DNA of 64,000 nt. It comes from an uncultured delta proteobacterium (lineage in GTDB: Bacteria > Desulfobacterota > Desulfomonilia > UBA1062). The position numbers and the translations under genes are program-made. The notes beneath the pieces are model-generated. The model had not been told where the DNA came from. It was given only the letters and a program-made list of their open reading frames with translations, and searched no databases. Position 1 is the first letter of the stretch; each line of letters starts with the position of its first letter. The stretch is taken from contig CAWCTR010000007.1 in assembly GCA_963798485.1 (NCBI GenBank), forward strand, positions 160,001-224,000. Reading direction: 5' to 3'. Positions 8,364 through 15,124 of this stretch are shown here, in pieces.

Positions 8364-8999
8364 ATGAAGCTGGTTGTAACCGAGATCTTTTATTCCCTCC
8401 AGGGCGAAGGGCCTTTCATGGGTTTGCCTTCGGTCTTCATCCGCCTGGGCGGATGCATAGACCCCTTATGCCCATGGTGTGACACCGAATATGCCTGGCA
8501 TGAATACAGCGAGATGGGAACCGACGAGATTATTGCAGAGGTGAACAGGTATGCCTGCAAGGATGTGGTAATCACCGGCGGGGAACCTTTCCTCCAATGG
8601 GAATTGGGGCTCAAAGATCTTCATAGCGAGCTTGTCGGAAGCGGATACCGCATATTCTATGAGACCAGCGGCAAGATTGACATCCCGGGTCTATTAGATG
8701 CAACCATTGTCATGAGTCCGAAAAATATCGCAGGACAGTGGCATCTCCCTTTAGGAAACATAGAAAAAGCCGATTATTTCAAATTTGTGGCAGATGATGC
8801 GGCAGCGCTTGGCGAGATCGACCGGTTTGTAAAGGACCATGCCATTGCCAAAGACCGTGTGTTTATGATGCCCCAGGGCAAGACCAGGGCCGAACAGCTC
8901 AAAAGGATGGCGACAATATTTTCCTTCTGCAGGAAACACGGCTACCGGATGACCCCACGGCTCCATGTGCTCATCTTTGATGATAAACGAGGTGTATGA
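8364..8999 (+). CDS. queE: 7-carboxy-7-deazaguanine synthase (radical SAM)
   Basis: EIFYSLQGEG..FIRLGGC..CPWCDT, ITGGEP, PRLH. Confidence 0.92.
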   Translation: MKLVVTEIFYSLQGEGPFMGLPSVFIRLGGCIDPLCPWCDTEYAWHEYSEMGTDEIIAEVNRYACKDVVITGGEPFLQWELGLKDLHSELVGSGYRIFYETSGKIDIPGLLDATIVMSPKNIAGQWHLPLGNIEKADYFKFVADDAAALGEIDRFVKDHAIAKDRVFMMPQGKTRAEQLKRMATIFSFCRKHGYRMTPRLHVLIFDDKRGV

Positions 9000-9658
9000 T
9001 GGATGATGCCGTGATCCTTCTCTCCGGCGGCATGGACTCGGGCGTGATGCTGGCCTGGGCAAGGCCCCGCTTCAGCCATTTACATGCCTTAAGCTTTGAT
9101 TATGGTTCAAAGCATGCCGTAAAAGAGCTCATTATGGCTCAAAATCTTGCGGAAGTATACGGTGCCCGCTTCACAAAGGTGGAGCTGCCGTTTGTCAACA
9201 CCCTGTTCTCTTCCAGCCTGTTGCAATCAGGAGAAGAGATCCCGGACGGACCCTACCGGACTGACTCCATTTCATCCACAGTGGTCCCCTTCAGGAACGG
9301 GATCATGCTGTCAGTCGCTATTGGCTATGCGGAAACCCATCAGATCTCTACCGTGCTCATTGCATCACATTCAGGAGACCATCCCATTTATCCTGACTGC
9401 ACTGTTGAGTTCACCGAGGCCATGTCACAGACGGCAGCACTCGGCACCTTCACCAAGGTAAAGATCGAGGCCCCCTTTGCAGGGTTTGACAAGAGACGGA
9501 TCGCAGGGATCGGCCGGGGGTTGAACTTTGATTTCACCCGGACCTGGTCCTGCTACAAGGGCCTTGAGCTGCACTGCGGAGCCTGCGCCACCTGCCTGGA
9601 GAGAAAATACGCCCTGGAGTATGAGGCCGGCCTTGACCCAACGAGGTACCTGGTATGA
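8996..9658 (+). CDS. queC: 7-cyano-7-deazaguanine synthase
   Basis: LSGGMDS, VPFRN, YPDC, TWSCY..HCGACATC. Confidence 0.95.
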   Translation: MMDDAVILLSGGMDSGVMLAWARPRFSHLHALSFDYGSKHAVKELIMAQNLAEVYGARFTKVELPFVNTLFSSSLLQSGEEIPDGPYRTDSISSTVVPFRNGIMLSVAIGYAETHQISTVLIASHSGDHPIYPDCTVEFTEAMSQTAALGTFTKVKIEAPFAGFDKRRIAGIGRGLNFDFTRTWSCYKGLELHCGACATCLERKYALEYEAGLDPTRYLV

Positions 9659-10455
9659 ACCGGATACCGCTTGGCAGAAAAATCCCTCAGCCCAAGGGTC
9701 ATGACCCTAAAGTGCTTTATCCCATACCAAGAAAGCCCTGCGAAATAAGGCTCTACGGGTATGACCTCTGGCGGTCTTACGAACTATCCTGGCTTAACAG
9801 CAAAGGCAAACCCCGGATAGGCATCCTCGAGATCGTCTATCCCACCCAAAGCAAGTGTATTGTGGAGTCGAAATCCCTCAAGCTCTACTTAGGCGGACTC
9901 TCATACGAGAATTTCGATTCGGCCAAAGGGATTGAAGAAATCATCCGGCATGACCTCGATCATATCCTGCTGCCCGAATGGATCTCGGTGCGCATCATTG
10001 AACAGGCCGGTTTTCCGCAGATGACATGTCAGCCTCATCCGGATGGCACCTGCCTGGACAACCAGGACGTTCAGATTCCTGGCTTCCAAAGGGACCCTGC
10101 CCTGCTCTCATGCGCACAAGGCTTATCTGAAGAGACACTCTACTCGGATTTGCTGAAGACCAACTGCCCTATCACAGGCCAGCCGGACTGGGGGAGTGTG
10201 GCCATATGCTACCAGGGAAGGACTATCGACCATGAAGCGCTGCTGAAATATATCTATTCCTATCGTGATCACGAAGGATTTGCAGAAGATGTTTGTGAAC
10301 AGATATTTTTAGATATTATGGAGAGATGCAAGCCGGACACGTTAACCGTCAGGTGTTCTTATACGAGGCGAGGCGGAATCGATATAAACCCCTTCAGGAG
10401 CTCTCACCCAATCGACCCGGATAATATCGACAAGGCAAGGCTCATCCGCCAGTAA
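9655..10455 (+). CDS. queF: NADPH-dependent preQ0 reductase (bimodular)
   Basis: VESKSLKLYL, NCPITGQPDWG, YTRRGGIDINP. Confidence 0.92.
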   Translation: MNRIPLGRKIPQPKGHDPKVLYPIPRKPCEIRLYGYDLWRSYELSWLNSKGKPRIGILEIVYPTQSKCIVESKSLKLYLGGLSYENFDSAKGIEEIIRHDLDHILLPEWISVRIIEQAGFPQMTCQPHPDGTCLDNQDVQIPGFQRDPALLSCAQGLSEETLYSDLLKTNCPITGQPDWGSVAICYQGRTIDHEALLKYIYSYRDHEGFAEDVCEQIFLDIMERCKPDTLTVRCSYTRRGGIDINPFRSSHPIDPDNIDKARLIRQ

Positions 10456-10533: not shown

Positions 10534-11028
10534 TCAATGCGGCGTGATTGATATCGTCCCTTTGATATCCGCCTTAAATCCCAACATCGCGAAATCGCCC
10601 AAGCTCGGTCCCGTCGTATCGTTCCCAACGCGAATGGCGCCGATGGTGAATTTGTTGATATTGATGGTCATATCGATCTGCTGTGTGCCGAGACCAAAAG
10701 ACCCGAGACCCATCAATCCGAGACCCATCATCCCGAAACCAGGAACAGCGGCATTGGCCATTTGATTGGCCAGGTTTGTATTCGGGGGAGTGGAATTTCT
10801 TGAGGTCACGGAGCCTTGGATTGTTACATCGCTGAAATTAAAAAACCCATCCCCCATGTTGGGAATATACGAGTTGAACGTAGCGGTTGTATCCTCGGCA
10901 AACCCCGCCTGACCGATGACTTCGCTCAAATCGGCATCGGACAAAGCCACCATCTTGGCTAATCCTGCCTGCGGGAGCATGAGCATTGCGATTATACAGA
11001 GAGCAGCAAGTAGGGTTGTTCTGTTCAT
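10534..11028 (-). CDS. Secreted DUF6160/FilA-like protein
   Basis: Signal peptide followed by MVALSDADLSEVIGQAG, typical of the DUF6160/FilA N-terminus; AAAGGAG RBS before ATG 11028. Confidence 0.7.
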   Translation of the reverse strand: MNRTTLLAALCIIAMLMLPQAGLAKMVALSDADLSEVIGQAGFAEDTTATFNSYIPNMGDGFFNFSDVTIQGSVTSRNSTPPNTNLANQMANAAVPGFGMMGLGLMGLGSFGLGTQQIDMTININKFTIGAIRVGNDTTGPSLGDFAMLGFKADIKGTISITPH

Positions 11029-11049
11029 TGGAACTCCTTTCTGATGAGG

Positions 11050-11135
11050 TTCTCCAGGCGACCCGGCTGTCCACACTCCCTGTGGACCCGTGGCTTTCCG
11101 GCCCATGGTTACCCATGGTGTGGCTAGAGTGAGAA
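11050..11135 (-). ncRNA. c-di-GMP-I (GEMM-I) riboswitch, gene-proximal copy
   Basis: Minus strand AGCCACACCAUGG-GUAA-CCAUGGGCCGGAAAGCCACGGGUCC..GGACAGCCGGGUCGCC; UUCUC/GAGAA P1. Confidence 0.85.
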
Positions 11136-11146
11136 GTGCTGGTGAA

Positions 11147-11233
11147 TCCTTTTCAGGCGACCCGGCTGTCCGAGCACTATTTCGGACCCGTGGTTTTCCG
11201 GCCCATGGTTACCCATGGTGTGGCTCTGAAGGA
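11147..11233 (-). ncRNA. c-di-GMP-I (GEMM-I) riboswitch, middle copy
   Basis: Same P2 with GUAA loop, GGAAAACCACGGGUCC..GGACAGCCGGGUCGCC, different P3 tip. Confidence 0.85.
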
Positions 11234-11316
11234 GGCGACCCGGCTGTCCACCCTCCGTTAGGCATGGACCCGTGGTTTTCCGTCCCACAGTTACCTGTGG
11301 TTTGGCTTGTGAAGGA
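11234..11316 (-). ncRNA. c-di-GMP-I (GEMM-I) riboswitch, promoter-proximal copy
   Basis: AGCCAAACCACAG-GUAA-CUGUGGGACGGAAAACCACGGGUCC..GGACAGCCGGGUCGCC; compensatory P2 changes relative to the other copies. Confidence 0.88.
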
Positions 11317-11459
11317 GTGCGCGAGAGATCTCTCAAGGAGATCCCGGCGCGAGTTTTCCCTCGTTGTTTCTATTAAAAAGGTACGAGCGCTGCTTTAAGT
11401 TACTCTTTTACCCATGTGTGGCCTCTGGAGCCAAAGAGCACACATGGCTCTTTCATAAA

Positions 11460-11472
11460 TTGTCAAAGAACA
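11460..11472 (-). promoter_or_regulatory. boxA-like Nus-factor antitermination site
   Basis: Minus strand TGTTCTTTGACAA versus boxA TGCTCTTTAACA, at the 5' end of the long leader. Confidence 0.5.
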
Positions 11473-11503
11473 CTTCAGGCATTAAGCCCTGCTATAATTT
11501 AAC

Positions 11504-11530
11504 CTATCGAGCACAATGGCAAAAACATTA
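11504..11530 (-). promoter_or_regulatory. Possible sigma28 (FliA) promoter
   Basis: TAAT-N15-CTCGATAG versus consensus TAAA-N15-GCCGATAA. Confidence 0.35.
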
Positions 11531-11670
11531 GCCCTGTTGTCTTAATAAACGCAGGGTTTCAGGTTCACCGGGAAAGTAAGCTGGGAAGAGCGTGTAAGGC
11601 CGCTGGATATAAGTGTGAAGAGTAGCATGGATTACAAAAAGGGAATTCCATTTGATAGGCTATCATACTT

Positions 11671-14600
11671 TCAGGCATGTTCCTTATGTTTAAGCTCTTT
11701 TGCCATTCGTTTTTCCTGTAGCGGATTACCCATCTCTTTCCAGAGCTCGAGTGATTTACCAAAGCACCGTTGCGCCTTTGATGACTTGCCGGCCGCCTTG
11801 AGGAGATTCCCCCATGAGGCAATGAGCCAGGCCTGATGGGGTTTCATCATGGATGAGCAAGCAAGGGCATATGCCCGTGATAGTGTTTTATGGGCAGTAT
11901 CATATTGACCTTGGGAGGTGCATATCTCGGCAAATACCCTTAAGGCCCAGATGAGCTGGTCGACATTCCCCTTTTGCTCATTCCAGGTTATACTTTCCTG
12001 GGCAGCACTCAGTGCAGTGCTATAATCACCCAGGAGGCGGCATGCCTCAGCCAGTGCGTTCAGGGCATAGGGCACCCGGTTGGCAACACCATCCCTTAGG
12101 CCAGGAAGTGCATTATTGATGAGCTCCTTTGCCTCTTCAGGATTACCTTTTTCCAATGCAATCCATGCACGGTACAGGTCCTTTATCGAACCTGCACAGT
12201 GGATTTCTCCCCCCAGGGCATTGAATGCATCCAGATCGGCAGTGGCACCCTGTATGTTTCCGAAATACCGAGCGCGGAAATAGATGGAACCCTGAATCCT
12301 CAAATAGGAAAGCCCGCCTGCAATCATCCCTAGCTTCATCTCCCTCGAAGATACATCCTCAAAAACCCTACGGGCCTCTTCAAATCTTCCTTCAAGACAA
12401 CATATATGGGCAAGCCATATGTCCGCCATGAGATCAATGTCCATATATGCACTGCTGAATCTCTTTGTTTCTCCATACCAAGATCGTGAACCCTCCAGAT
12501 CACCCTTCCATACGCTTGCAGCCAACGTAGTCAGGACATTGACGGTATAAAGAAACCGGTCCGATGCGTCGAGGGTAGGTCTGGCATTATCAAGCAGGCG
12601 CAAGGCATCAAGGGGCTTGCCGAGAAAGGTGTAGGTATAGGCAAAGGCGGTATGTGCTGCGGCAATCAACACCGGATTATCACAGATGAGGTTTAAGGCA
12701 AAGTCATAGCACTCTTTTGCCTTATTAAAGAGACCCTTCTGGGAATAGAGGTTAATGAGCCGGATGGAGCAAAAGGCCTCTTCCTCATTAAGGCCCTTAT
12801 TGCGGTAAATGCCCGCAAGACGCTCCAGGGCGATAATGGCCCGGCCCGGACTGAATATACGATAGCATCTCCAGATCCCTTCTTGTATAGCCACAAGCAG
12901 CTCTTCTGCGTCAGGCAACGTTTTGCCGGCCTTAAGATGTTGTTCTGCTGATAAAAAATGCGCCCCGGCCTCAACCCATGCCCCTGTTGCCTGGCAGTGT
13001 TTGCCGGCTTCCATATGGTAATACACCGCCTTCGAATGTTCCTGTGCCTTTCCGAAATGATGGGCAAGCTCTCCGGCATGATCCTTTAAACATAATCCGC
13101 AACTGTCTTCAATGGCCAGTGCGATCTTCTTGTGCAGCCTGATCCGCTCTTTCTTCAAGAGGGTCCTGCTTGCAACATCGCGGATAATCTCATGCTTGAA
13201 GATGTATTCGCCCTTACCGAGGGATTGGATGAAGCCATGTTTGACTGATTCACTTAAGCCCTCTTTCAAGACATCCTTCTCTGAGCACACCAAAACCAAT
13301 AAGGCTTCAGTAAATATCCTTCCAATAAAGGCCGACTCCTGGAGTATCCTCTTGGAAGCGGCCCCCATATGATCAAGCCGCGAAGAGATGAGCCCGTACA
13401 GTGTCGTGGGCAGATCATCCAAAAGGACTATTTGGCCTTGATTGGTTAGATCCACCCCTTTTTCCAGGAGGTAGTTGGTCACCTCTTCAACAAAGAATGG
13501 GTTGCCTCCTGTTGCTTCAGCCAGAGAACTCACCGTCATATCAGGGACTAGGACAGCATTAAGCATATTTTTAAGCATCTCACCCACTTCAGCTTCACCG
13601 AGCTCCTGCAGGATCAGGCGGGCACCGGGAAAGGCGCTCGCCACTCCATGACGGTGCGTAAGGAGCAGCAGACAGGGACAGGACTTATCCCACCTATGGA
13701 TAAGATATGTCAGAAGATCAAGCGTACTCTGGTCCGCCCAATGGATATCCTCAATGCAGAAGATTGTAGGCAGATTCAAGGCCGCAGAGCTGAGCAGCCA
13801 CAACATGGCATCACTGCCTTTCACCTTGAGGATATCCGGAGATTCACCACCTTTGGTGGCAGCGCTATCCATGAAGAAGGCAAGGTGAGCAGCATACTCC
13901 CCGGACAGTCCATGCCGGGTTAAGGCCCGGGCAATATCATGGGTGTCGCTATGCATACTATCGAGCCCCAATAATGCCTGTACGAGTCTCGAAAAGGGAA
14001 AGTACGGCTTAGAGCTTGTATGATCGAAACAGGTTGCTGTTATGAATAGTACACCCTTATCAAGGGTTATCTTAAATTCTTCAATGAGCCTGCTCTTGCC
14101 GACACCTGCATCGCCGATGATGCAGGTTACGCAGCCTTTGCCTGATTGAAGATCCCTCGCCTTTGATAAAAGTATAGACAGCTCATGCTCGCGGCCCACC
14201 AGCGGCGAGGTGACCCCACCCACCCTGTGTAGTGCAAGGGGGATTTTTCTCTCCTGGATAACCTTGTATACGTGGATGGGCTTTCTGAATCCCTTGAGCA
14301 ACTTTTTGCCCATCCATTCGAGATGAAAATACCGCATCGCATCGGATACAAGCGCCTCTCCGATGAGTATCTCTCCATCTGACGCCATGTCACACAGCCT
14401 GGAAGCTATGTTGATGGGCTTACCCAGCGTGCCGTGCGATGAGTGGCATGGATTGCCGGAATCAACAAGCACCTCGCCCGTGTTTATGCCCGTATGCATG
14501 TTCAAACGGATGTTACAGGTATTAAGCAGGGGCATATTCAACCCTCCCACGGTCTTGTGGATTTCCAGGGCGGCAAGGATGCCTCTTACAGGATCATCCT

Positions 14601-14898
14601 CCCGGGCCTTAGCATTGCCGAATATGGCAAGCACTGCATCACCGATATACTTTTCCACTATGCCGCCATAGCCCCTGATAACCCCGGTGATTTCGCTCAG
14701 GACTTTGCCCATGAACGCACTGAGGTCCTCATGGTCGAGCCTTTCGGACAGCAGGCTGTATCCGCTTAAATCCGTACAGACAATGGTAACAAAGCGATAT
14801 TCAGGGACAGGTTCACCCTGAGAAAGGCAAGAGCCGCACCGGGAGCAGTACCGGTCGGATGAATCAACACTCGCGCCGCATACCGTACAATCTTTCAT
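11671..14898 (-). CDS. Zinc ribbon-class III nucleotide cyclase-STAND AAA ATPase-TPR protein
   Basis: CTVC..CSRC; TDLSGYS, EKYIGDA, INIASRL; Walker A GDAGVGKS; IEDIHWAD; GGNPFF; helical C-terminus. Confidence 0.9.
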   Translation of the reverse strand: MKDCTVCGASVDSSDRYCSRCGSCLSQGEPVPEYRFVTIVCTDLSGYSLLSERLDHEDLSAFMGKVLSEITGVIRGYGGIVEKYIGDAVLAIFGNAKAREDDPVRGILAALEIHKTVGGLNMPLLNTCNIRLNMHTGINTGEVLVDSGNPCHSSHGTLGKPINIASRLCDMASDGEILIGEALVSDAMRYFHLEWMGKKLLKGFRKPIHVYKVIQERKIPLALHRVGGVTSPLVGREHELSILLSKARDLQSGKGCVTCIIGDAGVGKSRLIEEFKITLDKGVLFITATCFDHTSSKPYFPFSRLVQALLGLDSMHSDTHDIARALTRHGLSGEYAAHLAFFMDSAATKGGESPDILKVKGSDAMLWLLSSAALNLPTIFCIEDIHWADQSTLDLLTYLIHRWDKSCPCLLLLTHRHGVASAFPGARLILQELGEAEVGEMLKNMLNAVLVPDMTVSSLAEATGGNPFFVEEVTNYLLEKGVDLTNQGQIVLLDDLPTTLYGLISSRLDHMGAASKRILQESAFIGRIFTEALLVLVCSEKDVLKEGLSESVKHGFIQSLGKGEYIFKHEIIRDVASRTLLKKERIRLHKKIALAIEDSCGLCLKDHAGELAHHFGKAQEHSKAVYYHMEAGKHCQATGAWVEAGAHFLSAEQHLKAGKTLPDAEELLVAIQEGIWRCYRIFSPGRAIIALERLAGIYRNKGLNEEEAFCSIRLINLYSQKGLFNKAKECYDFALNLICDNPVLIAAAHTAFAYTYTFLGKPLDALRLLDNARPTLDASDRFLYTVNVLTTLAASVWKGDLEGSRSWYGETKRFSSAYMDIDLMADIWLAHICCLEGRFEEARRVFEDVSSREMKLGMIAGGLSYLRIQGSIYFRARYFGNIQGATADLDAFNALGGEIHCAGSIKDLYRAWIALEKGNPEEAKELINNALPGLRDGVANRVPYALNALAEACRLLGDYSTALSAAQESITWNEQKGNVDQLIWALRVFAEICTSQGQYDTAHKTLSRAYALACSSMMKPHQAWLIASWGNLLKAAGKSSKAQRCFGKSLELWKEMGNPLQEKRMAKELKHKEHA

Positions 14899-15124
14899 AG
14901 GTTCCCTCCTTCTCACGCAGGTTAAACATGCACAACGATGAAGGTTTCTGTTCAGGAGGGGTGGTATTTGAATTCAAATTGACCATCAGGTCAAAATCAC
15001 ACATAATAACTCAAATATACCTAATACTCCTCGCCGAGGCCATTCAATAGAGAAATCTTGATCGGAAGAGCATATAGTGATACGAAAGTGAGGAAAGGCT
15101 TATAAATTATAGGGGAAGATCTTT

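Follow-up and report, generated by a model that had tools for sequence, protein, structure and literature searches.

Three tandem c-di-GMP-I aptamers that may share a single translational switch upstream of a DUF6160 gene

We analyzed a stretch of 64,000 nt from an uncultured delta proteobacterium (GTDB lineage Bacteria; Desulfobacterota; Desulfomonilia; UBA1062; GenBank assembly GCA_963798485.1, contig CAWCTR010000007.1, positions 160,001 to 224,000 of the forward strand), which as a whole is called the window below. A preliminary description, made from the letters of this DNA, had proposed three tandem riboswitches for cyclic di-GMP (c-di-GMP) in the leader of a gene for a DUF6160-like protein. 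Coordinates are those of the window, and features lie on its minus strand unless otherwise stated. The three aptamers are present, and we give a probability of roughly one-half to the proposal that they feed one translational ON switch of the monocistronic DUF6160 gene. This model of the expression platform was derived from conserved complementarity and energy calculations, not from covariation, and we consider it plausible.

Results

Identification of the three aptamers

The minus strand between 11050 and 11316 consists of three similar units of 70 to 75 nt each. The RF01051 covariance-model search named in the preliminary description bore out both the identity of the units as c-di-GMP-I (GEMM-I) aptamers and their strand: all three copies passed the gathering score of 35 bits (60.9, 48.0, and 55.1 bits for copies 1, 2, and 3, respectively). 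Aptamer 1 (11231..11316, core 11234-11307; E = 1.9e-09) and aptamer 3 (11054..11134; E = 5e-08) were the only matches when the 64-kb window was scanned with Rfam at gathering thresholds. Aptamer 2 (11153..11225; E = 3.6e-09), whose score was obtained by scanning it alone, was reported neither by the whole-window scan nor by a permissive scan of 10900-11700, because its match overlaps that of the higher-scoring copy 1 by a few bases; it is not a weak aptamer. The same under-counting of overlapping copies by Rfam was found at every related locus. The last aptamer lies next to the gene, as had been described, but the distance of about 20 nt given for it was too short, since it ends 25 to 28 nt before the ATG at 11028.

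All three copies have a GUAA loop on P2, a CGGAAA junction, and the motif ACGGGUCC...GGACAGCCGGGUCGCC (also written GGGUCC...GGACAGCCGGGUCGCC). The stems of P2 differ by compensatory changes (CACAG/CUGUG in copy 1 vs. CAUGG/CCAUG in copies 2 and 3), and the tips of P3 differ among the copies. Each of these traits had been noted beforehand, and each was seen in the copies. A GNRA tetraloop on P2 is a trait of type 1 GEMM aptamers. RF01051 model positions 11, 38, and 83, which we take to be G20, A47, and C92 of Vc2 (mapped by hand from the Rfam consensus), are G, A, and C in all three copies, in agreement with the G that had been read at the specificity position. Replacement of G20 by A is the change associated with sensing of 3′,3′-cyclic GMP-AMP (3′,3′-cGAMP). 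A GEMM-Ib cGAMP riboswitch, which needs this A, was rejected for the window, where all three copies have G. The C-G pair beside the G20 equivalent has a flipped orientation in all window copies.

Two variant families were also rejected. With RF03167 (c-di-GMP-I-GGC; gathering score 59 bits), window copies reached 57.6 and 53.9 bits, the latter for copy 2 alone, and with RF03168 (c-di-GMP-I-UAU; gathering score 65.9 bits), a window copy reached 59.1 bits. Some copies from relatives pass the cut-offs of RF03167 or RF03168, yet their contact triad is still G/A/C.

The first copy had been suspected to lack a P1 helix of its own, and this view was upheld: the P1 pairs of copy 1 are flagged as noncanonical in its RF03167 alignment, and its flanks carry the same pyrimidine motif on both sides and are not complementary.

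Conservation of the array in relatives

A protein search yielded 46 proteins including the query, nearly all of them DUF6160 proteins from environmental assemblies (PF19657 was precomputed for 41 of the 46 homologs). Scanning the GTDB species genomes with an alignment of 22 homologs gave 23 loci (L001 to L023), most of them in metagenome-assembled genomes (MAGs) of Desulfomonilia or “Deltaproteobacteria.” One locus, L004, lies at a contig edge without upstream DNA, leaving 22 loci in which a leader could be inspected. The proposed association of the riboswitch with DUF6160 genes was recovered in this survey, with Rfam placing GEMM-I matches immediately before the homologous gene at 20 of the 23 loci, the exceptions being L004, L022, and L023.

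Copies in the relatives were counted with a hidden Markov model of the aptamer core and the leader alignment, since Rfam drops abutting copies. Three aptamers, at about −279, −197, and −97, were found in the window and in 14 loci (L001-L003, L005-L012, and L015-L017). Four were found in L018 and L019, two in L013 and L014, and one in L020 and L021, and no aptamer was found in 2 of the 22 loci with upstream DNA. The fourth copy of L018 scored 59.8 bits with RF01051 when scanned alone.

When 56 copies, taken from the window and 18 loci, were aligned, the 22 pairs of the GEMM-I structure were preserved in 94.4% of cells, and seven pairs changed on both sides. The P2/P3 covariation score was reached by none of 500 shuffles, and controls with slid partners were 23% to 45% paired. 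The G20 equivalent is G in 54 of the 56 copies; the A47 and C92 equivalents are A and C in all 56, and so is the GNRA loop on P2. Copies were more similar to those at the same position in other loci (identity 0.83 to 0.86) than to their neighbors in the same locus (0.76). For copy 1, the identity was 0.83 at the same position vs. 0.74 for different positions in different loci, and in 41 of 42 cases the nearest copy was one from the matching position. The copies are orthologous by position, and the triplication is therefore older than the split of these lineages, whose DUF6160 homologs are down to approximately 52% identical. Judged from these comparisons, each aptamer is a unit retained since before the lineages diverged.

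Several relatives depart from the common layout. The middle aptamers of two close relatives, L001 and L008 (3805-3874 in both), have A at the G20 equivalent (AACC instead of AGCC) and are the only copies to do so (L001_c2 and L008_c2); these arrays may be mixed sensors of c-di-GMP, cGAMP, and c-di-GMP. L018 (3597-3958) and L019 (same coordinates), from Desulfosudis oleivorans and Desulfocicer MAGs, have four tandem GEMM-I aptamers before a distant DUF6160-like gene, and the last two of these aptamers are 8 nt apart (UCCUUAUA). In L014, approximately 100 nt upstream of 3242, a region resembling a decayed first aptamer was noted by eye; its P2 is kept, its junction and P3 have diverged, and the usual CUCCUC linker follows. 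This copy may be a ghost aptamer. L013, with two aptamers, lacks one copy, and its pyrimidine tract and the counterpart of the strand that follows aptamer 2 in the window (T2, see below) pair as a normal P1 around just one aptamer.

These data also bear on whether every copy senses c-di-GMP. Aptamer 1 could be a nonbinding scaffold or ghost, or some copies could respond to 3′,3′-cGAMP like GEMM-Ib; the missing P1 of aptamer 1, the decayed first copy of L014, the copy absent from L013, the A in the middle aptamers of L001 and L008, and the class III nucleotidyl cyclase fusion encoded upstream would all suit such a reading. We nevertheless regard it as improbable, the least favored of the alternatives considered here, because G/A/C occupies the contact positions of every window copy, aptamer 1 retains every core position while its P2 and P3 covary across loci, and copy 1 is distinguished by position (0.83 vs. 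0.74) as given above.

Leader strands and the proposed expression platform

The strands that flank the aptamers are almost invariant and mutually complementary. The linker between aptamers 1 and 2 (F2, 11226..11234) includes CUCCUU (11229-11234), the exact complement of the Shine-Dalgarno (SD) sequence AAGGAG (11034..11039), which lies 5 nt upstream of the ATG (11026-11028) and is invariant in 15 of 15 aligned leaders. F2 is likewise invariant in all 15, although 3 nt shorter in two of them; the spacing between aptamers 1 and 2 is 9 to 10 nt, and 6 nt in two loci. The UCCUUCA of F2 is the 5′ strand of the P1 of aptamer 2, P1(A2), which has 7 bp with a 2-nt bulge and is 97% paired across the 15 leaders, with no covariation. 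Its 3′ strand is UGAAAAGGA, the SD-like 5′ part of T2 (11139..11156), which follows aptamer 2. T2 begins with the SD-like UGA(A/G)AAGGA, and the whole strand can alternatively pair with T3 (11041..11057), between aptamer 3 and the SD sequence, in a 14-bp helix (H23) that encloses aptamer 3 and is 96.2% paired across the leaders. T3 could also pair with F3 (CUCUA, 11125..11129), the candidate 5′ strand of the P1 of aptamer 3, P1(A3), of which five of five pairs are present in the window; F3 is weakly anti-SD-like too. The linker, T2, T3, and the SD sequence are all nearly invariant across the 15 leaders. A second anti-SD-like tract, F1 (ACUCCUU, 11312..11318), lies just 5′ of aptamer 1.

From this complementarity, the following switch can be proposed. 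In the ligand-free leader, T2 would pair with T3 as H23 and leave the linker between aptamers 1 and 2 free, so that its CUCCUU would pair with the SD sequence and keep translation off. On binding of c-di-GMP, aptamer 3 would close its P1 with F3 and the start of T3 and thereby open H23, and aptamer 2 would close its P1 with UCCUUCA and the UGAAAAGGA of T2, capturing the anti-SD strand. The ribosome-binding site would then be free and translation on. The pocket of aptamer 1 extends to the first linker base, and the anti-SD helix starts with the C84 equivalent of this aptamer; because the pocket abuts the linker, the ligand of aptamer 1 should favor the same helix, perhaps through stacking on the far end of P1(A2), although this last step is speculation. 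As all three sites would push a single conformational switch, a steeper response than that of one aptamer is expected.

The preliminary description had seen no terminators between the aptamers and had suggested a shared or translational platform, and both points fit the results. A scan of the minus strand from 11029 to 11400 found no terminator-like site in the leader; two minus-strand sites lie inside the coding region. RNAalifold applied to the 15 leaders folds the three aptamers and pairs CUCCUU with AAGGAG in 13 to 15 of the 15. An array of the Bc3-5 type, in which each aptamer has its own terminator, was rejected on the terminator scan.

The array could alternatively consist of three independent riboswitches in series, pseudo-cooperative in effect, with a mechanism that is not visible in the sequence (Rho-dependent termination or RNA decay) and with incidental complementarity to the SD sequence. 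Published tandem c-di-GMP-I systems are described as such units in the available text of three reports (PMC4759541, PMC9481103, and PMC12452182), and the platform helices come without proof by covariation. We consider this arrangement quite unlikely for the window: the leader has no terminator-like site, the spacing is 9 to 10 nt between aptamers 1 and 2, the stretch between aptamers 2 and 3 is approximately 30 nt long and contains no U-run, aptamer 1 is without a P1 that could transmit a signal, and linker strands that are nearly invariant in 15 leaders argue for a function.

Folding calculations and the direction of the switch

With the aptamer helices enforced and F1 kept unpaired, the minimum free energy (MFE) structure paired the SD sequence with the linker in 13 of the 15 leaders, and in 8 of the 15 its energy equaled that of H23 combined with the linker:SD pairing. 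Forcing P1(A2) with F1 blocked cost 4.0 to 13.3 kcal/mol and raised the mean unpaired probability of the SD sequence from 0.04-0.26 to 0.36-0.86, with an increase in all 15 leaders. H23 is present in the MFE structure of the window. In L018 and L019, the linkers are unrelated in sequence, yet distal and proximal 5′ strands again compete, as judged by eye, for one 3′ strand of an aptamer; this layout favors alternative pairing as a design principle.

Other results weigh against the ON switch. In the unconstrained MFE structure of the window, the SD sequence was paired with F1, which is an even better anti-SD strand, and not with the linker; this pairing persisted in the window when P1(A2) was forced, and the SD sequence stayed closed. 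For the model to hold, therefore, a leader hairpin must sequester F1. Many relatives have such a hairpin, with F1 as its 3′ strand opposite a purine-rich partner, but a comparison with shuffled leaders gave clear sequestration at no more than 6 of 16 loci, and the window was not among them (36 of 100 shuffles were as good). Forcing P1(A3) alone barely freed the SD sequence in most leaders, its addition to P1(A2) made little difference in most, and this helix is poorly kept (70.7% of cells paired across the 15 leaders). Another way to interpret H23 is as an extended P1 of aptamer 3. Covariation adds nothing in favor of the platform helices: H23 has one compensatory change, matched by 49 of 500 shuffles, and P1(A2) has none, although strands that vary so little make covariation uninformative here. 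The linker that joins the last two aptamers of L018 and L019 pairs only with the real SD sequence and there is no decoy, which suits an OFF switch at least as well. Finally, the energy model considers no ligand, tertiary contacts, or cotranscriptional folding.

Part of this evidence points to an OFF switch, in which compact ligand-bound aptamers would bring F1 or the linker onto the SD sequence, so that the anti-SD:SD helix would be a long-range P1. The MFE structure of the window closes the whole array in this way through ACUCCUU of F1 and AAGGAGU, even with P1(A2) forced, and in L018 and L019 the 8-nt linker that pairs only with the real SD sequence is placed as the 3′ strand of a P1. Such a switch would, however, leave the invariant SD-like decoy T2 without a role, and F1 is not conserved in three or four of the 15 leaders (L015, L016, L017, and partly L011). 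Forced P1(A2) raised SD accessibility in every leader once F1 was blocked, and c-di-GMP is usually an inducer of surface and matrix proteins. On balance, an OFF switch seems unlikely, if somewhat less so than a series of independent units.

A further reading can be envisaged, which we put forward tentatively as a possibility with the odds against it: a truly cooperative second-messenger riboswitch, with three pockets (four in the Desulfosudis-like relatives) wired to one ribosome-binding site by strand exchanges. The helix between the linker and T2 would be both the P1 of aptamer 2 and the stacking platform of the P1-less aptamer 1, so that two ligands would cap it, and aptamer 3 would gate the availability of T2.

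The DUF6160 gene and its product

The regulated gene (10534..11028) encodes 164 amino acids and was placed by its translation, its PF19657 match, the N-termini of its homologs, and synteny. The ATG at 11028, which follows AAGGAG by 5 nt, agrees with the N-termini of all homologs; the list of open reading frames opens the frame earlier, at an ATG within aptamer 3. The gene is taken to be monocistronic because the next gene is convergent. That its product belongs to DUF6160 was confirmed (PF19657, 31.7 bits vs. a cut-off of 27, E = 1.9e-07, residues 10-89). The label “FilA,” which had also been attached to it, found no support: an NCBIfam search of the protein returned no families, and no curated FilA model or solved pilin was matched.

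The protein has a signal-peptide-like N-terminus, as judged by eye, and a middle part rich in Gly, Met, and Leu. Its AlphaFold2 model, built from 22 sequences, is β-rich and of low confidence (mean predicted local distance difference test score 60.9). A Foldseek search of the model against the PDB returned no matches at E ≤ 0.001. The top match, an environmental “pilus-like-alpha” fiber (9xfv_A), was not significant (E = 0.12, TM = 0.28); it is a lead only, and the sole hint of the filament role that had been suggested. The available text of the paper on this fiber (PMC12956863) gives no link to DUF6160. Nothing below E = 0.3 was found in a profile search of PDB sequences, an ESM Atlas search returned only DUF6160 or unnamed clusters, and a literature search for DUF6160 retrieved no relevant paper. 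The product is thus described here as a putative secreted, β-rich protein, for which a surface or matrix role would fit induction at high c-di-GMP.

Upstream element and gene neighborhood

A promoter-proximal element (11399..11447) is composed of an imperfect 36-nt palindrome (11412-11447) and the invariant 15-mer GGGTAAAAGAGTAAC (11399-11413). It is conserved in all 15 aligned leaders and in L013, L014, and the distant L018 and L019. A motif containing TTGACA (11461-11466) is part of the conserved region 11399-11470 on the same strand. In L015, L018, and L019, the first aptamer starts 5 to 12 nt after the element, which suggests a promoter (−35 near 11429-11434; −10 TAAAAG, 11405-11410) with an operator, or a 5′-terminal RNA hairpin. 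A sigma-70 scan did not pick up the 11399-11447 element, and its sole minus-strand match (11522-11494) was rejected, being no more than shuffles give (mean 1.3).

Some of the differences in the palindrome between loci are compensatory. The 3′ arm of the palindrome and the following bases (..CCACACAUGGGUAA.., 11412-11420) are a near repeat of the 5′ half of aptamers 2 and 3 (GCCACACCAUGGGUAA; 11200-11216 and 11100-11116), which could be the remnant of a partial aptamer copy or a product of chance.

Directly upstream of the DUF6160 gene, on the same strand, a gene at 11671-14916 encodes a protein of 1081 amino acids with a zinc ribbon, a class III adenylate/guanylate cyclase domain, an AAA_16 ATPase domain, and TPR repeats. 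This fusion is similar to the cyclase half of TOMM kinase/cyclase fusions, at a level well below the cut-off. On the plus strand, queE-queC-queF (8364-10455; preQ0/preQ1 synthesis) converge with the DUF6160 gene, with the stop codons only approximately 78 nt apart; no preQ1 riboswitch was returned when the window was scanned with Rfam. Both neighbors, the cyclase fusion upstream and the convergent que genes downstream, are kept in most of L001-L017.

Discussion

The role usually given to tandem c-di-GMP riboswitches is to make the transition between motile and sessile life sharper, and, to our knowledge, the examples examined to date are series of independent units, each based on a terminator. 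Three or four aptamers on one SD-sequestering platform would offer a natural test of allosteric cooperativity in a second-messenger riboswitch, and such an array would offer a compact part for steep c-di-GMP biosensors. Conservation of the array extends over uncultured Desulfomonilia and related Thermodesulfobacteriota. The array also provides a first regulatory clue for DUF6160, in the form of a predicted tight control by c-di-GMP that would suit a surface or matrix component.

Among known systems, the window copies are closest in form to the Vc2 type of RF01051, with which they share P2 with a GNRA loop, P3 with an AG bulge, the G/A/C contacts, and a gathering score passed by each copy. They differ in the flipped C-G pair beside G20, in the absence of P1 from copy 1, and in the apparent sharing of a platform. 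GEMM-Ib 3′,3′-cGAMP riboswitches occur in Geobacter; they have the same fold, come from a related phylum, and recall the A variant in the middle aptamers of L001 and L008, whereas the window copies all have G at that position. Their occurrence in Geobacter is also mentioned in the available text of PMC9481103.

The array that invites the most direct comparison is Bc3-5 of Bacillus thuringiensis, three complete terminator-based class I ON riboswitches with a more digital response, as presented in the available text of Zhou et al. (2016; PMC4759541). In both arrays, a single 5′ untranslated region carries three class I aptamers that resemble one another. In Bc3-5, as far as that text goes, each unit has its own terminator and controls transcription, whereas the window array has no terminators, a 9-nt spacing, and apparently one SD platform; it also comes from another phylum and precedes another gene family. 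Triple arrays had been called rare. An example was indeed known, but the term needs qualifying, as Sherlock et al. (2022) counted 347 doublets and 12 triplets of c-di-GMP-I (PMC9481103, available text). In the same text, c-di-GMP-I tandems are classed as having multiple expression platforms and as pseudo-cooperative, with no quadruplet mentioned there. The window array is of the triplet kind surveyed by these authors, the difference being its apparent single platform. A 2025 survey in Microb Genom reports, in the portion available, that contiguous c-di-GMP riboswitches are enriched in Thermodesulfobacteriota and treats them as complete units (PMC12452182). A literature search for a layout like that of the window found no description of one, most subscription journals being outside its scope.

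If the cooperative reading is true, the array would be the c-di-GMP counterpart of the tandem glycine riboswitch, distinct from the tandems of independent units described so far. In the glycine riboswitch, adjacent aptamers for the same ligand on one platform allow real cooperativity (see also Table 1 of PMC9481103). That riboswitch has two aptamers of an unrelated fold and for an unrelated ligand; the window array has three, with no evidence for tertiary contacts between them. Taken one by one, the window copies are ordinary members of RF01051, and a triple c-di-GMP-I array is a known kind. What sets this array apart is its packing at 9 nt without terminators, its apparent single SD platform, its P1-less first aptamer, its link to DUF6160, and its four-aptamer relatives.

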